From assembly GCF_054482525.1 (NCBI RefSeq), contig NZ_CM137006.1: DNA of 64,000 bases; one strand, written 5' to 3'. The notes under the pieces were generated by a model, which was not told where the DNA came from, ran no database searches, and was given only the letters and a program-made list of their open reading frames with translations. The position numbers and the translations under genes are program-made. Positions within the stretch are counted from its first letter, which is position 1, and every line of letters starts with the position of its first letter. Shown here piece after piece: positions 23,129-56,313 of the stretch.

Positions 23129-25995
<2,867 letters not shown>

Positions 25996-26135
25996 CTATT
26001 ATTTTAGCCACATTATTAGTAACAATGATAATCTGGCTGTATCGAAAATAATTCTAAACTTTCAGGAGATTTATTATGAATAAACGTATCCTCACGATTG
26101 CGCCATTCTTCTTACCGATATTCTGACACATATCA

Positions 26136-48218: not shown

Positions 48219-49103
48219 ATGGCGAAAAGGGAGAACTACAACGAGCTGTACCTGTTTATGCAGGTGGTGCGGGAAGGCAGCTTTACCGCAGCGGCTCAGC
48301 GGCTGGGTCTTGCTCAGTCAGGAGTCAGCCGTTCTGTTCGCGAGCTTGAAGAAAGGCTGGGCGTCCAGCTGCTAGTGCGCACCACGCGTAAACTGTCGCT
48401 GACACAAGCAGGCGAGCAGCTCTACCAGAAGACGGCATCTGGATTTGAAATGTTAGATCTTGGGCTTGCCACGCTGGCGCACTATCGAGAGACGCCCTCC
48501 GGCACGGTGCGTATCAATGCCAGCCAGCACGCGATTGATAAATGCCTGCTGCCAAAGCTGGCGGTATTTAAACAGAGATATCCTGATATCCGGCTTGAAC
48601 TGATAAATGAGAGCCGGTTCGTCGATATCATCGAGGAAAGATTCGATGCAGGTGTCCGCCTGGGGCCTGAAGTCGGCCAGGGTATGGTCGCGGTACGCAT
48701 CACGCCCGATATGGAGATGGCAATTGTGGGGACTCCGGAACATTTTCGTCGTTATGGTTTTCCGCAAACCCCGGCGGATTTAAAGGCGCATCCCTGTATC
48801 GCCTATCAGTTTGCCGACGGCAGCGTATACCAGTGGGAACTCAATCAGGATGATAAAAAAATCACTCATCGCCCTGAAGGGCAATGGGCCCTATCCGACA
48901 GCTATATGGAAGCAGAAGCCGCCCGGCTGGGCCTCGGATTGGCCTATGTTCCTGTTGAACTGGTCGCGGATGATTTAGAACACGGTAACCTTATCAGGGT
49001 GTTGCAGCGTTACAGCCTGCGAATGGAGGGATTGTTTCTCTATTACCCTCATCGCAACGTCTCCCCCGCTCTGCGGATGGTCATTGATACATTGAAAATC
49101 TGA
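48219..49103 (+). CDS. LysR-family transcriptional regulator
   Basis: 294 aa; HTH VVREGSFTAAAQRLGLAQSGVSRSVRELEE; divergent from the hydrolase gene. Confidence 0.85.
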   Translation: MAKRENYNELYLFMQVVREGSFTAAAQRLGLAQSGVSRSVRELEERLGVQLLVRTTRKLSLTQAGEQLYQKTASGFEMLDLGLATLAHYRETPSGTVRINASQHAIDKCLLPKLAVFKQRYPDIRLELINESRFVDIIEERFDAGVRLGPEVGQGMVAVRITPDMEMAIVGTPEHFRRYGFPQTPADLKAHPCIAYQFADGSVYQWELNQDDKKITHRPEGQWALSDSYMEAEAARLGLGLAYVPVELVADDLEHGNLIRVLQRYSLRMEGLFLYYPHRNVSPALRMVIDTLKI

Positions 49104-49316
49104 ACGTTAACAACGACCGACTCTTTACTGTGCAAAATTGTGTCAGGTAGTCCCTCTGCGTTCAATTCCAGGGTCTGTACACCCTGCTTTGAGCGAGAAA
49201 GAGGGGACTATCCAGCAATGGAGATCACCCAAAAGAAAAAACCACCTGGCTCCCTCGACAACCTTCATCCAGGCATTTAGCCTCAATCAACATTTTTATA
49301 TCTGTCAGGTTACTTC

Positions 49317-49590
49317 ATGATGAAAACTGATCATTATCGTTGTTTTTGTTGCAATAGTAGAATACGCGTATTTATTCCTCCATCTCTATTAATAACGGCA
49401 ATAAACTGTTCACTTCACTGATATTTAAAATATGTATCCTTTTCAAGCTGTTCAGCGGCGTAAGAAAAAGCATTAATTATGAATTCGACGATTTAACCAT
49501 TTCAGTCTGATTGGTAATCATCTGTGATTAATGCTGGTCTATTGATTACGCCAGCATTAACCGCTTAGGGATGTATTCTTCCTGTTCATA
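49317..49590 (+). repeat. Degenerate second copy of the ykgR-(ykgM-ykgO) locus: frameshifted ykgR paralog fused to the 3' end of an rpmJ2-like gene plus its terminator
   Basis: 49327-49441 matches 30040-30150 (ykgR 3' part and downstream) and 49441-49590 matches 30824-30966 (ykgO 3' end and terminator), about 85-90 percent identity by eye, same orientation. Confidence 0.7.
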
Positions 49591-49793
49591 TAGCCCTCGA
49601 AAAAGAGAGAAAATAAAACTGTGTCCAATATTAATTTACCACTCCAGACCGAAGCATCGGTGGGATTAGCAGGACGACTGGTACAGAAGGATGGTATAGC
49701 GTCATTTGTCGGGCATTCCATTGCCATAATAATGACAATTTTGAATCAATAGACATGCTTCTTGATCATGTCTTAAAAATTAGACCATGAGCC

Positions 49794-50024
49794 TTACGAA
49801 GCATCATTTTTACTGACTGGTATTAACTTTGCTATCATATAAACTCTATTCTTAAAAAACGCGCCCAGAATTTTATATGATTTTCCTTGTTTTGCTGCCT
49901 GTAAAGAAATTTCTTTTTCAGTGCTGTCGATGGTTGAACCGACGGCAGTAATCGTTTTGGCGACGCTACTGAAGGATATTAAAGACAGTGTAACCACAAC
50001 AATTAAAGAATAGATAATATTCAT
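49794..50024 (-). CDS. Small periplasmic DUF1471 (YhcN/BhsA-family) protein
   Basis: Signal peptide MNIIYSLIVVVTLSLISFSSVA and C-terminal ...GKSYKILGAFFKNRVYMIAKLI pattern. Confidence 0.5.
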   Translation of the reverse strand: MNIIYSLIVVVTLSLISFSSVAKTITAVGSTIDSTEKEISLQAAKQGKSYKILGAFFKNRVYMIAKLIPVSKNDAS

Positions 50025-50239
50025 GCTAATTCTCCTGACAATTGAGAGGATGAGTTTTATATACAAAGGCATTAAATATGAGTCATGTTTACTCCCTGTG
50101 AAAATAATCTTACTGTAATTAAACCTTCATCTCCTTCGGAGTGAGCAATGCATAATATAATGCATCTTGCTATTCAAAACAGTGGATATAAATTTTCCTT
50201 CCGACCTATTTAATAAAACGTGAATATAAAAGTTATTCT

Positions 50240-50791
50240 TCAGTTTGCAGATGCAGTAGGTCTGATGGTAATTTCGGTTGTATCAACGCTTTCGGGAGAT
50301 TCAATAATATGCCTTACAGCACGGGCAATATCCGCGGGTTGAAGTGCAACAGAACGGTAGGCGTCTATTGACTTCATGGTTTCCACATGGGTAATGGTTG
50401 AAGCCAGTTCACTTTCTACAACCCCAGGATTTACGCAGGTCACACGGATTTTCGAGCTTTCCTGCCGTAAGCCATCCGAAATAGCCCGTACTGCAAATTT
50501 TGACGCGCAATAGACTGCGCCTGTGGGCACAACAGAAAGGGCACCAATAGAACCAAGATTGATTATCTGACCGGAACCCTGTGCTTCCATCACCGGAAGT
50601 ACAGCGCCAATTCCCCAAAGTACACCTTTGATATTCACGTCAATAGTGAGTTCCCATTCATCTTGTTTTCCTGCTGCAAGCGGTGAAAGCGGCATAACGC
50701 CCGCATTATTGATAAGAACATCAACTCGCCCCCAGCTATCCAGCGCTGCTTGCACGAAATCTGCCATGGACTGTCGGTCTGTGACATCCAA
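50240..50791 (-). pseudogene. 5'-truncated short-chain dehydrogenase/reductase gene
   Basis: Contains NNAG, the catalytic Ser and YxxxK but lacks the N-terminal TGxxxGxG Rossmann segment (about 60 aa missing); frame abuts the integrase fragment. Confidence 0.6.
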
Positions 50792-50794
50792 CTT

Positions 50795-50962
50795 GCATTT
50801 TCAGAAATGGGAGGCTGGGAGTCTATCGAAATGGTTCGTCGATATGCTCACCTCGCGCCTAATCACCTTACCGAACACGCACGGCAAATAGACTCAGTCC
50901 TGAACCCATCGGTCCCAAATTTGTCCCAGTCAAAAAAAAAGGAAGGTACTAATTATGTGTAA
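50795..50962 (+). pseudogene. 3' fragment of a tyrosine recombinase (phage/P4-type integrase) gene
   Basis: Encodes ...[24 protein letters not shown], the integrase C-terminal motif carrying the catalytic Tyr; no upstream integrase body. Confidence 0.6.
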
Positions 50963-51174
50963 CTTATTGATTTAAATGGTGCGATAATAGGAATATAACA
51001 CACCACATATATTCTTTGATAAATATGACTATTTTCTTGTTTCATCTTTATAAATGCCCCCTTTTGTGCCCCCACCTTGTTTTTCATGCGACTCGATGAG
51101 ACTTTCATCGAGTCGTTAATCTCATCAAATTCTTCACGTATCGTGGAAACCTTCGCAGATCTCCATCCCCTCAC
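50953..51174 (-). CDS. Hypothetical small protein coupled to the toxin gene
   Basis: 73-aa ORF whose ATG overlaps the toxin stop (ATGA). Confidence 0.3.
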
Positions 51175-51539
51175 AGCCGTGATCGGCTAAGAACAATATT
51201 ACTTACCTCCCTGTAAGAACACCGGCTCATCAGCCCGCACGCTTTCCTGGCTTGAAGAATGTCTGTCGCAGTCAAATATGGTGCTTGTACCTGAGAGGTA
51301 AATCCATTGCGATCAATACGAACTAACTCATATTTCTCTACCAGAAAGTTAACGGCATTAGCCAGAGTGATACCGGCATCGATATGCTCCTTTATAACGG
51401 TTTCATCGCTAAAAGGTGTGTCGCTTAGCATTAGGCCATAGTGCTGCTCAAGCAGACGAGTAAGTAACATTTGCCAGATTGCAACGGGCGACAGACAGGG
51501 CTTCGCCGCCCGCGAAATTGTAGCAGGTAGATTTTTCAT
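51171..51539 (-). CDS. CbtA/YeeV/YkfI-family toxin (cytoskeleton-targeting type IV TA toxin)
   Basis: [36 protein letters not shown]... is collinear with CbtA; ATGA overlap with the antitoxin stop. Confidence 0.85.
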
Positions 51540-51877
51540 GTTTGCTCTCGTGAAATTTGTTTGCGCTGAGGGGGATAAATGGCGATGTATACGTAGCCGC
51601 AACTACCAAGGGTATCGGCTTCGCAGGTGAAACCGTTGTGGTACAGGGTGACACAGTGGGCATGGCGGGGATTCATTTCACCAGTGGTCAGCATCGATTC
51701 CATCTGACTGATAAAATGTGGAAATACGACATCCAACTTCAGGCTTTCGGCATCACTAAACTTACCGGTGATACTTGCCCGGTCAGCCAGATAGTGCAGC
51801 CGGTTGCCCTCCTGCACCAGACGTGCTCCCAGGCACGGCGTGATATCCCGCTGCAGGCCCCATGTGGGGTTGCTCAT
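51536..51877 (-). CDS. CbeA/YeeU/YfjZ-family antitoxin
   Basis: ...[20 protein letters not shown]...[10 protein letters not shown] matches the YeeU family. Confidence 0.85.
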
Positions 51878-51894
51878 TTATAACCTCTTTATTG

Positions 51895-52116
51895 TCAGTT
51901 CAGGGTAATACTCACCAGACAGGTATAAGGTCCGTTGCGATCCTGGCGGCGTTCGACGTATACCGCCAGCACACTGGAAATGTCAGGAACCACCTTAACG
52001 GTGTATTGACAGACACTGCCATGCCACTGGTATCTGCCAGTGCAGAATCGAACAATGCGGGAGGCCGGATGCTGACGGTAAATCGTCATCGCCAGGCGTT
52101 TACTGATAATTTTCAT
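51895..52116 (-). CDS. DUF987 protein (YeeT/YkfH family)
   Basis: MKIISKRLAMTIYRQHPASRIVRFCTGRYQWHGSVC... Confidence 0.75.
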   Translation of the reverse strand: MKIISKRLAMTIYRQHPASRIVRFCTGRYQWHGSVCQYTVKVVPDISSVLAVYVERRQDRNGPYTCLVSITLN

Positions 52117-52124
52117 GTAATACC

Positions 52125-52604
52125 TCAAAGCAGACCATGTTCAGCGAACGACAATATCTGCGTACCACCGACGATAAGGTGGTCGAGCACCCGGATCTCC
52201 ACCAGCATCAGTGCATGTAACAGTCGTTGAGTGATAGCCTTGTCGGCCTGGCTTGGAGTCACTTCTCCGGACGGGTGGTTATGGGCAAATATCACCGCCG
52301 CCGCATTAAAGTACAGCGCGCGTTTCACCACCTCGCGAGGATGAACCTCAGTGTGACTGATGGTGCCGGTAAAGAGCGTTTCGTGGGCAAGCAGCTGGTT
52401 CTGGTTATTGAGGTACAACACGACAAACACTTCGCGCTCAAGGGGGCCCATTTTCAGCCTGAGCCAGTCGCGGGCAGCCTGAGTCGAGGTGAATGCCACA
52501 CCCGGTTCTAGCAAGTGCTGGTCAAGCAGAACCAAGGCTCGCTTAATGGTACGCAGTGCTGGTAACGGCAGTTCAGGTGTAAACATAGTCAGTTGTTTCG
52601 CCAT
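52125..52604 (-). CDS. RadC-like JAB-domain protein (YeeS/YkfG/YfjY family)
   Basis: HNHPSGEVTPSQAD JAMM-like motif. Confidence 0.85.
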   Translation of the reverse strand: MAKQLTMFTPELPLPALRTIKRALVLLDQHLLEPGVAFTSTQAARDWLRLKMGPLEREVFVVLYLNNQNQLLAHETLFTGTISHTEVHPREVVKRALYFNAAAVIFAHNHPSGEVTPSQADKAITQRLLHALMLVEIRVLDHLIVGGTQILSFAEHGLL

Positions 52605-53032: not shown

Positions 53033-54230
53033 TGATCCTACCCGCGTAATGTGGACACGCTCCTAAGCGAGATTCTGGTTTTCAAACTGTTTCGGGCTGA
53101 GGCCGCCATAATCGCTGTGACGCCGCCAGCGATTGTAATCGCACTTAATCCGCCGTCCGCATGATTTCCCGGCTGATAAAGCGTTCTCCGTGGATACACT
53201 CGACTTTTAACGAGTGTAAGAAGCTTTCCGCACAGGCATTATCATAACAGCAACCTTTTGCGCTCATGCTGCCATGCAGATTATGTCGTTTCAGCAGAGC
53301 CTGATAATCCGCTGAGCAGTACTGCCCGCCACGGTCGGTGTGAATTCGCCGCCACAGCGCCATCTGCAGTGCATCACAGGCAAGTTCTGCCGTTATTTGC
53401 GAGGACACCAACTAGCCAATAATAGCACGCGACCACCAGTCTATAACCACGGCAAAGTATAACAAGCTTTCATCGATGCGAAGGTACGTGATGTCACCAG
53501 CCCACTTCTGGTCCGAGCCACTAGATCTGAAGTCCTGCTTCAGCAGATTCTCCGGCACTGGCTGGTCGTGAGCACAGTAGATTAACGGGCTGAACAGACG
53601 TGAGGTTTTTGCCCGCAGGCCCTGACGACGCGAACTGTTGCTATCGTTTTGATGTTGTATTCCGGCGGCTCGTCTGCAAGACGAGCCGCACCATAACGCT
53701 GTTTTGCCTCAACGAATACCTTACAGACAGCTTCATTGAAGACGCACCGGAACTGTTGCCGATGGCTCAGTTGGGGACGACGCAGACACCAGGTATACCA
53801 GCAGCTGTGCGCCACGCACAGCACCCGACACATAGCTTTGATACTGAACTCAACCTGATATTTTTCGATAAAGATATACTTCATTTCAGGCGCTACGCGA
53901 AGTATGTCGCGCCCTTTTGGAGAATAGCCAACTCATTATCCCGCTCAGCCAGTTGACGTTTGAGGCAGGCAATCTCCGCTGCTTGTGCGCTCTCTCTCAG
54001 AGGATATTGTCTGGTGCAGTTGTTTGTAGAGCTGGGAATCGTAAAGGCTGAGTTCACGGGCGGTAGTGGCCACACCGAGACGTTCGGCCAACTTAAGGGC
54101 TTCTTCACGAAATTCAGGCGTGTGTTGTTTGCGTGACTTTTGTTGATTGATGCTGATTTTGTCATGTGAGCTACCTCTGATTGAGAGTTTACTCGCTTAG
54201 TCCCGTGTCCACTATTGGTGGGTAGGATCA
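53033..54230 (-). mobile_element. Degraded IS3-family insertion sequence (IS3-like) with frameshifted orfA/orfB
   Basis: Terminal inverted repeats TGATCCTACCCGCGTAATGTGGAC (left) and TGATCCTACCCACCAATAGTGGAC (right, reverse complement); minus-strand ORF fragments match IS3 InsE (…[23 protein letters not shown]) and InsF (MKYIFIEK..., ...[14 protein letters not shown]...CCYDNA...), split by frameshifts; no target-site duplication. Confidence 0.8.
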
Positions 54231-54579
54231 TTATTGATCAAAGATCAAGATGTGCAAAAATTCCCAAGTAAAGCCTTATCTGAACCTTCCGTTTTGTTAG
54301 CACATCTGACATTATTATTCAGTCAAATCCCTTCAGTTGATTGAGTTCAAAGGCGGTAGCTATGCTGATTTGCATTACTGTAAAACTTTTAAAGCAGAGG
54401 TTTATATAGAATTGCTCTGTTGAATAAATTAGTAGGTTCACATGGATTTTGAGTTCACCAAGCATGACAACTTGCGTTCTTCAAGCGATCCTGAGAAGCC
54501 TATTATATTAGTGTACAAGATGCCTCACGTGGCACCACTGAATTTTACATTAGACTCTATCCATTAAAACGATAAAATT

Positions 54580-56313
54580 ATGTACATAGCAAAAATTAAA
54601 TTTACAAATTTCAAATCATTCAAAGAGATGTCTTTTGAGTGCAATGATAAATTCAACATAATTGTTGGTGAAAATAATATTGGTAAAAGCACATTATTTG
54701 AGGGGGTAAGTTTATGGAAATATGCTTATGACAACCTTATTCAAGAAAAAAACAAAAACAAATTCTACAAAGCTTCAACTAACTACTACATTACCTATTC
54801 TACACTCGATCAAATAAGACTTGTTGACGATATTGATATTTTTAACGACCCAAAGAATAGCTCCGCATCAATATGCATTACAATTAAAGATGAACAAAAT
54901 GAATTTGATTTAGAGATTAGATTTGAAAAGCCAGGGATTAAAAATTCATACTTACGGATATTTAATAGCAATGGTTCTGATAATGACACACAGTTTTCAA
55001 ACTTTGAACGATTCTCAAACTATATAAAAGAAAAGGATTGCACTCTAAAAGATGCCATTTACATTTACCAAACAAGACCAATATCAACTATTTTTAGAGA
55101 TGAGCCATTTTACAATAATGCGCAGATAGAGAAAAAAATAAATATTGGAAAGTCACATGATGTCTTAAGGAATAAAATATTAAAAACCGAAAATACTCAA
55201 GCCACAAGGGTTGCACAAAAATTTGAAAATCTTGAGATTCGCCTACAAAAAGTCCTTGGTGAAAACTATATCTTAAAATTTAAGAATAGAAATCGAATCG
55301 ATGATGAGTATGTTAAAATAACTGCAACAAAGGAAAACGGGAAAGAATTGGAAATATCACTTATGGGTAGTGGTTTTTTGCAAGTCTTAGAGATATTTTC
55401 AACAATTGAGTATATGGAAAAGAATTCAACCGGTATTAACCTCATTCTTATCGATGAGCCTGATTCACATATCCACTCAAATTTACAAGCAAATTTAATT
55501 GACGAACTAAAGCAACAAACAGCATGTCAAATTTTTGTCATAACACATAATGACAGACTAACATCAAAAGCTAATGAAGGTGAGCTTTTTTATCTAAATC
55601 AGATAGTTAAGGATCTTGGTTTATTGTCTCACCTTGAAATATCTGATTATTCAAAAGTTAAAGATGGTCTAGCTAATGTACTAACAGCTATAAATGATGG
55701 AGATGAAACACCCATTGTTATAACTGAAGGAAAAACGGACCAGAAAATTTTAACAACTGCTTGGGAAAAGCTAAACCCAGGAACTCCTATGCCTTTTAAA
55801 ATAATTTCATCCGGCATTCAAATTGAAGAGGAAAAAAGAACTGGGTGCGCAGAGGCAGTTAGAAGATCTTTAGAATACATTTCAACATTAACTGATAGAA
55901 CAATTATCGGTTTATTTGATAATGATCGGGAGGGAAATGAGCAGTTCAAAGGATTAAATCGTTCTATTTTTGAACCTCATGACCTGCAAAATAACTCCCG
56001 AAAACATCAGATAAAAAATATCTATGGGCTTATTCTTCCCGTTCCTGTGCATAGAGAACGTTTTGTACAAAACAATTCTTTAACGCAGCGTTACTTCGTA
56101 ATTGAACAATATTTCCAAGATGAAATATTACTACAGCATAACATGAAAGGTGAGTCAATATTAGGTACTGAGGTATTTTTTGTTAATGACTCAAGAAAGA
56201 ATGAGTTTTCAGAGTCAACCAATGACCTTCCGGTAGAATGCTTTGGGGATTTTAGTATTTTATTCGATAAAATTTCCGATTTATTGGCTAACAATAGACC
56301 AGAAAACACTTGA
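54580..56313 (+). CDS. OLD-family protein: N-terminal ABC-type ATPase fused to a C-terminal TOPRIM nuclease-like domain (P2 Old / Gabija GajA / PARIS-like); candidate anti-phage defense protein
   Basis: 577 aa; Walker A GENNIGKST (aa 30-38), Walker B LILIDEPD (aa 288-295), H-loop ITHND; TOPRIM-like ITEGKTD (E383) and FDNDREG (D447, D449); strongly AT-rich codon usage. Confidence 0.7.
   Translation: MYIAKIKFTNFKSFKEMSFECNDKFNIIVGENNIGKSTLFEGVSLWKYAYDNLIQEKNKNKFYKASTNYYITYSTLDQIRLVDDIDIFNDPKNSSASICITIKDEQNEFDLEIRFEKPGIKNSYLRIFNSNGSDNDTQFSNFERFSNYIKEKDCTLKDAIYIYQTRPISTIFRDEPFYNNAQIEKKINIGKSHDVLRNKILKTENTQATRVAQKFENLEIRLQKVLGENYILKFKNRNRIDDEYVKITATKENGKELEISLMGSGFLQVLEIFSTIEYMEKNSTGINLILIDEPDSHIHSNLQANLIDELKQQTACQIFVITHNDRLTSKANEGELFYLNQIVKDLGLLSHLEISDYSKVKDGLANVLTAINDGDETPIVITEGKTDQKILTTAWEKLNPGTPMPFKIISSGIQIEEEKRTGCAEAVRRSLEYISTLTDRTIIGLFDNDREGNEQFKGLNRSIFEPHDLQNNSRKHQIKNIYGLILPVPVHRERFVQNNSLTQRYFVIEQYFQDEILLQHNMKGESILGTEVFFVNDSRKNEFSESTNDLPVECFGDFSILFDKISDLLANNRPENT

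Follow-up and report, generated by a model that had tools for sequence, protein, structure and literature searches.

The window, the whole 64,000-nt stretch of DNA analysed here, was compared by megablast with 5,426 complete E. coli genomes and their RefSeq annotation, and the region of interest falls in the interval that separates the pao operon from thrW, at the thrW (tRNA-Thr)-proA locus. From left to right are found a 5'-truncated gene for a short-chain dehydrogenase/reductase (SDR), a 3' stub of a phage integrase gene, a phage attP arm, a short 3' fragment of thrW and one end of a genomic island carrying a toxin-antitoxin module. The thrW gene is among the most used tDNA hotspots of E. 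coli (PMC7545054) and its flank was highly plastic among the genomes compared. ARAGORN detected no tRNA gene in the window, a scan of 50100-51300 revealed no promoter-like or terminator-like signals, and an Rfam search of 49000-51600 (E<=1) returned only chance matches below threshold, none reaching a family.

The ORF located at 50240-50791 on the minus strand encodes 183 aa of an SDR oxidoreductase, and homology to the SDR gene runs on to 50793. Its alignment to NCBIfam SDR profiles starts only at profile position ca. 55-60, as expected from the sequence-only reading that preceded this analysis and that had described an SDR deprived of its Rossmann N-terminus. The product matches the intact SDR of the O145 strain RM9872 (240 aa) over residues 58-240, the region being collinear with that gene; the first 57 codons are missing (codons ca. 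57/58 to 240 of 240 are kept) and the TGASSGIG Rossmann motif of the RM9872 protein falls within the absent part. The remnant thus retains NNAG and YxxxK without the TGxxxGIG cofactor-binding N-terminus, while classical SDRs combine an N-terminal TGxxxGxG Rossmann motif for cofactor binding with a YxxxK active site. That the ORF begins around NNAG, as had also been proposed, holds approximately, the actual start lying 26 residues upstream of this motif. In RefSeq, the SDR and integrase fragments are both annotated as partial pseudogenes and the former is flagged 'missing N-terminus'. Because the cofactor-binding fold and the neighbouring LysR regulator gene have both been lost, the SDR remnant is dead and no function is attributed to it. 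Adjoining it, a 92-aa ORF (49794-50072, minus strand) has a signal-peptide-like N-terminus and a single, weak match, to BhsA (E 0.002); this ORF is conserved in every state of the locus that retains the SDR.

On the plus strand, 50792-50962 corresponds to the 3' end of an integrase gene, of which 56 codons (50792-50959) and the stop codon (50960-50962) are present, i.e. codons 332-387 of 387. That only the C-terminus of an integrase is encoded had been recognised from the sequence; its assignment to the P4 type, in contrast, has to be abandoned. BLASTP aligned 52 aa of the stub with residues 336-387 of the SfII integrase at 94% identity, and in a tblastn comparison with phage records the stub matched 182 entries, with 91% identity to the integrases of SfI, SfII, SfIV and SfV and 83% to that of P22, so that identity to this family is high over the entire region present. 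No alignment with the 400-aa integrase of the island itself was obtained by BLASTP, even at E<=100. The latter, as found in strain SCU-102, has the P4-like domain set (Arm-DNA-bind_3, Phage_int_M and Phage_integrase) whereas SfII Int has PF00589 only. No NCBIfam family was assigned to the 70-aa ORF that contains the stub because it is too short, and its identity was settled by the tblastn comparison with phages. At the DNA level, the stub and the int allele of strain 7/2 are 100% identical from 50792 onwards; a full-length copy of this exact allele was not found among the genomes. Only the GGW and RRYAHL regions, the latter with the catalytic Tyr, are kept, and HDLRHT and everything upstream are gone. 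Of the complete catalytic domain (R-K-H-R-H/W-Y) needed by a functional integrase, Trp and Tyr alone are left, and the stub is a pseudogene that encodes no functional integrase.

The 14-nt spacer that follows the integrase stop codon (50963-50976) is a phage attP arm, as indicated by its alignment with the attP regions of SfII, SfV and P22 and with strain PCN033. The succession of stub, stop codon, spacer and thrW can be aligned base-for-base to the int-attP region of SfII and SfV, with P22 being close, and across the spacer the attP alignment shows identity. In these phages, int adjoins attP, and SfI, SfII, SfIV, SfV, SfX and P22 all integrate in thrW beside proA via a 46-bp core (PMC3636060). 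This core is complete in the genomes in which the stub is directly followed by thrW (see below) and is reduced to 16 nt in the window. Because of the Sf-type integrase identity, the attP alignment and the published integration of these phages in thrW, the segment 50792-50976 is what an Sf/P22-type lambdoid prophage has left on its attL side.

The join between the two pseudogenes was defined by aligning the window with both parents, represented by the O145 SDR and the int allele of strain 7/2. Homology to int starts at 50792 and homology to the SDR stops at 50793 (codon 57/58 of 240), confirming that the truncation of one coincides with the start of the other and leaving CT at 50792-50793 as a 2-nt microhomology common to both parents. 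The join is clean, and such a microhomology is typical of illegitimate recombination. At first sight, the segment 50794-50803 (TGCATTTTCA), which matches neither the SDR nor the SfII int, resembles a 10-nt filler; this was rejected because 100% matches starting at 50792 exist elsewhere and the segment belongs to the divergent int allele represented in strain 7/2. Neither an IS end nor an att-like sequence was found at the join. An IS-mediated adjacent deletion was rejected since no IS end is present, and an aberrant excision mediated by the integrase was also rejected, the breakpoint being inside the int ORF, 185 nt away from the att core and with 2 nt of homology to the SDR side. When compared to the arrangement found in O145 strains, ca. 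1.3 kb of chromosome, comprising the 5' part of the SDR gene, the LysR gene and spacers, is missing, and so is any part of the prophage that still existed beyond int codon 332.

This scar occurs in 19 of the 5,426 complete E. coli genomes with 97.7-100% identity over 131 nt, 17 of which have no island and two of which have differing islands. Because the junction is shared by these genomes at this level of identity, it is real, inherited and not recent.

Immediately after the attP arm, TGGTGCGATAATAGGA at 50977-50992 (minus strand) matches the terminal 17 nt of thrW in reverse complement, one C being absent. This 16-mer, of which the window has a single copy where chance would give 0, is a displaced 3' fragment of the tRNA gene and forms the att repeat at the distal end of the CbtA-type island. 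The 17-nt thrW end gave no match in an ungapped search of the window allowing up to 2 mismatches, owing to the 1-nt deletion in the fragment. The earlier statement that no tRNA-like sequence was recognised nearby by eye is correct as regards a tRNA gene but overlooks this fragment. To its left, the flank is common to the island-less scar genomes; to its right, from 50993, begins the toxin-side arm of the island (50993-51170), which has matches in roughly 1,600 genomes, where it sits at a comparable junction behind various left flanks. The island junction is accordingly placed by sequence comparison at 50992/50993, ca. 200 bp to the right of the SDR/int join. The scar had been taken for the left junction of the island at about 50.8 kb: it is indeed a boundary scar, but the join at ca. 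50.79 kb is the endpoint of a deletion in an older prophage remnant and the island starts only at 50993.

The opposite end of the island is seen in SCU-102, whose locus is 99.9% identical to the window. There, the island spans ca. 23.6 kb and ends at an intact thrW beside the gene for the 400-aa integrase, both of which lie past the right end of the window. The thrW 17-mer is present at both ends of the SCU-102 island in the same orientation, with thrW and int at 24676-26117 and the 17-mer repeat at 48301-48317 of the extracted locus (L004). A displaced 3' tDNA fragment at one end of an island and a regenerated gene at the integrase end are a standard signature (PMC4383910), and the arrangement sought by Islander (regenerated tDNA, displaced co-oriented 3' fragment, integrase in between) is found in SCU-102; the window holds its fragment end alone (50977-50992). 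Tandem arrays, and the division of attP sites into T-stem and anticodon classes, are established (PMC4383910). Judging by the lengths of the repeats, the 17-nt repeat, which starts at the T-loop/T-stem, would fit the T-stem class, and the 46-bp Sf/P22 core the anticodon class.

The fragment exists in two versions. The single-C version (TGGTG-CGATAATAGGA) was observed in the window, O169:H41, ET490, B20127, SE11 and FDAARGOS_1058, despite differing left flanks, while SCU-102 and SMS-3-5 have CC. The recurrence of the single-C fragment behind unrelated left flanks, with CC in SCU-102, is not explained by the simple displacement of a chromosomal fragment. The difference may reflect an imperfect attP core of the island combined with a very terminal crossover, or else homopolymer sequencing noise. 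That the island attP has an imperfect core and that its P4-like integrase exchanges strands within the last ca. 5 nt of the tRNA gene (the ACCA end) is a tentative and rather unlikely proposal; if true, the crossover would lie at an unusually terminal position, and the scar would stay an inert fossil.

In the window, the distal module of the island (51171-52604, minus strand), as defined from the RefSeq annotation of SCU-102 and from ORFs, encodes a CbtA-family toxin, a YeeU-family antitoxin, a DUF987 protein and RadC. Between radC and the nuclease gene described next, 53038-54231 contains a degraded IS3-family transposase with frameshifts and internal stops, and the antirestriction and DUF932 genes of related islands are absent at this position. 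Further right, 54580-56313 (plus strand) encodes a 577-aa ATP-dependent nuclease with PADLOC matches to NsnB, GajA, AriA/AriAB and a PtuA-type ABC-ATPase (E 1e-22 to 1e-14), flanked by the dead IS3 transposase and another transposase fragment; from its sequence it looks like a stand-alone candidate defence gene of the OLD/PARIS-like kind. In SCU-102, the integrase-proximal half of the island (26362-32539 of L004) carries genes for a SLATT-domain protein, a nucleoid-associated protein, a GTP pyrophosphokinase, DprA and a RecQ-family helicase, and looks like a cluster of defence-type cargo.

Three states of the locus were seen. In state A, found in O145 strains such as RM9872, a hypothetical gene is followed by the intact 240-aa SDR gene, the LysR regulator gene, thrW and proA, and the match to the window stops at 50793. 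In state B, found in PCN033 and 16 others, the truncated SDR and the int stub are followed by thrW, 14 nt past the int stop codon, and by proA; the match ends at 50992, i.e. 17 nt into the 3' end of thrW, and in PCN033 the position of the thrW fragment of the window runs on into the full gene. The comparison with island-less strains called for by the sequence-only reading thus yielded 17 genomes in which thrW directly follows the scar. State C, with a full-length match, is that of the window, SCU-102 and O169:H41, in which the truncated SDR and the stub precede the short thrW fragment and the CbtA/YeeU/DUF987/RadC island; the cargo of this island differs between the genomes, with nuclease, RecQ, DprA and SLATT genes in SCU-102 and ars genes in O169:H41. 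Other layouts were also encountered: SE11 and FDAARGOS_1058 have paoD, a LysR fragment, a thrW fragment and an island, the pao operon too is gone from SMS-3-5, and strain 7/2 has reverse transcriptase and AbiE genes where the SDR would stand. The anatomy of the window, and every intermediate state of the history that follows, can be seen in these genomes.

We consider it very probable that the region is a two-layer fossil without present function, left at the thrW hotspot beside proA by a phage, a deletion and a later island. On comparison, the ancestral locus would have had the order hypothetical gene, SDR, LysR, thrW and proA. A lambdoid phage resembling SfV/SfII, with an integrase of the P22 type, would then have entered thrW at the 46-bp core of its 3' half, leaving int as the innermost prophage gene with its 3' end facing the regenerated thrW. 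An illegitimate deletion at the 2-nt microhomology (CT), extending leftwards from int codon 332, would have taken away the rest of int and what was left of the element beyond it, along with its distal att site, and also the LysR gene and SDR codons 1-57, producing the SDR'-'int join at 50792/50793; we infer that this was a single event. Finally, an island of the CP4 type, encoding a P4-like integrase of its own, would have inserted into the terminal 17 nt of thrW, still intact at that point, displacing a 16-17-nt 3' fragment to 50977-50992, beside the toxin-antitoxin end of the island, and carrying the intact thrW and the island integrase ca. 23.6 kb away, outside the window. As had been suspected, the stub is left over from an earlier element that occupied the same site and lost most of its integrase. 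Tandem occupancy of the site by a phage and then an island does occur: in ET490 and B20127, a complete SfV-like prophage that retains full-length int precedes the same thrW fragment, behind which lies a CbtA island. What the deletion acted upon may have been a remnant that had already decayed: the same int allele is found as a 67-codon stub, adjoining thrW and with a different upstream junction, in 803 of the 5,426 genomes, including ST131-type strains. Strain 7/2 was considered as a pre-deletion genome and rejected, having its own different deletion and no SDR.

The order of the last two steps is likewise inferred. The scar is argued to have come first because the two other state-C genomes hold differing islands behind an identical scar, and phage integration, deletion and independent island insertions into an intact thrW form the most parsimonious series. 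Against a fixed order, precise excision of the island from a state-C ancestor would likewise yield state B. In the reverse sequence of events, the island would have entered thrW while the Sf-like prophage was complete, as in ET490 and B20127, the deletion would have followed, state B would result from precise excision and the O169:H41 island from re-integration or exchange. Genomes with the full prophage and island in tandem do exist and excision is plausible because the island retains its integrase and att repeats, but state B is far commoner (17 versus 2 genomes, with 97.7-100% junction identity) and, given the differing islands, one deletion and two independent insertions are more parsimonious; we therefore hold the reversed order to be improbable. 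Still less credible is that the stub belonged to the P4-type integrase of an earlier CP4-like island or tandem copy and that the present island has its left att junction at the SDR/int join. An earlier element did occupy the site and the present island is of CP4 type with a P4-like integrase, yet the stub is an Sf-type integrase that does not align with that of the island, the arm downstream of it is an Sf-phage attP arm, the stub converges on thrW in the manner of lambdoid int genes, the island arm begins at 50993, past the thrW fragment, and 17 genomes have the scar without any island. A sequencing or assembly artefact or a frameshift that conceals a full-length SDR or integrase gene, an a priori possibility to which only the single homopolymer difference (C versus CC) between the thrW fragments of the window and SCU-102 lends anything, has a negligible chance of being right, the junction being common to 19 independently assembled complete genomes with accumulated substitutions and ca. 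1.3 kb of chromosome (SDR 5' end, LysR) being simply absent when compared to O145.

Returning to the two-layer history, the scar is a case of ordinary tRNA-hotspot decay, a kind of feature that is already known, and its import is mostly one of annotation: the left end of the island is 50992/50993, its site is thrW and the integrase family of the stub is corrected. It is nonetheless a clear case of two integrase classes acting successively on one tRNA gene, an Sf/P22 Int of the anticodon-loop type and then a P4-like Int of the T-stem/3'-end type, the host having lost an SDR gene and its LysR regulator as collateral damage. The 19-genome scar could also be used as a lineage or recombination marker.

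Several known systems resemble parts of this locus. The island is like CP4-6 and CP4-57 of K-12 in being of the CbtA/YeeU/RadC type with a distal module of RadC, DUF987, antitoxin and toxin, and SCU-102 matches the layout of CP4-57 (ssrA) with an integrase beside the tRNA gene. Its description as CP4-57-like is hence valid for the gene layout, but the site is thrW, as for CP4-6, and not ssrA. CP4-6 uses the same tRNA gene and differs in cargo; its toxin module adjoins thrW, inverted relative to the window island, and it is bounded by a ca. 49-nt thrW repeat at the intF end. In MG1655, this repeat of the thrW 3' half, which has the length of the Sf/P22-type core, lies at the right end of CP4-6 beside intF/yagP (L008, 37100-37400), and the CbtA-type module (ykfI-yafW) directly adjoins the intact thrW. 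Because of this repeat length and of the inverted module at thrW, CP4-6 looks composite or rearranged. The scar itself is no part of the adjacent island.

The stub of strain 7/2 and ST131-type strains (HTH'|'int-thrW) has the same int allele (100% identity over the shared 74 nt) at the same place beside thrW. It differs by its 67 codons, its other upstream junction, its flank of reverse transcriptase and AbiE genes and the complete deletion of the SDR, and it occurs in 803 genomes compared with 19 for the window scar. In strain 7/2 (L011/L017), the stub is followed by an ash-family gene, a gene for a 1,069-aa reverse transcriptase and AbiEi/AbiEii, this block replacing the SDR region.

A further counterpart of the scar is the attL junction of the Shigella flexneri serotype-converting phages SfI, SfII, SfIV and SfV and of Salmonella P22, with the same integrase family, the same spacer between the int stop codon and thrW, the same target gene and the same orientation, the 3' end of int converging on that of thrW, and with the 46-bp core in state-B genomes. 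Unlike these prophages, the window has kept 56 of the 387 int codons and has lost gtr genes, xis and all other parts of the phage, and its core has been cut to 16 nt, apparently by the later insertion of the island.
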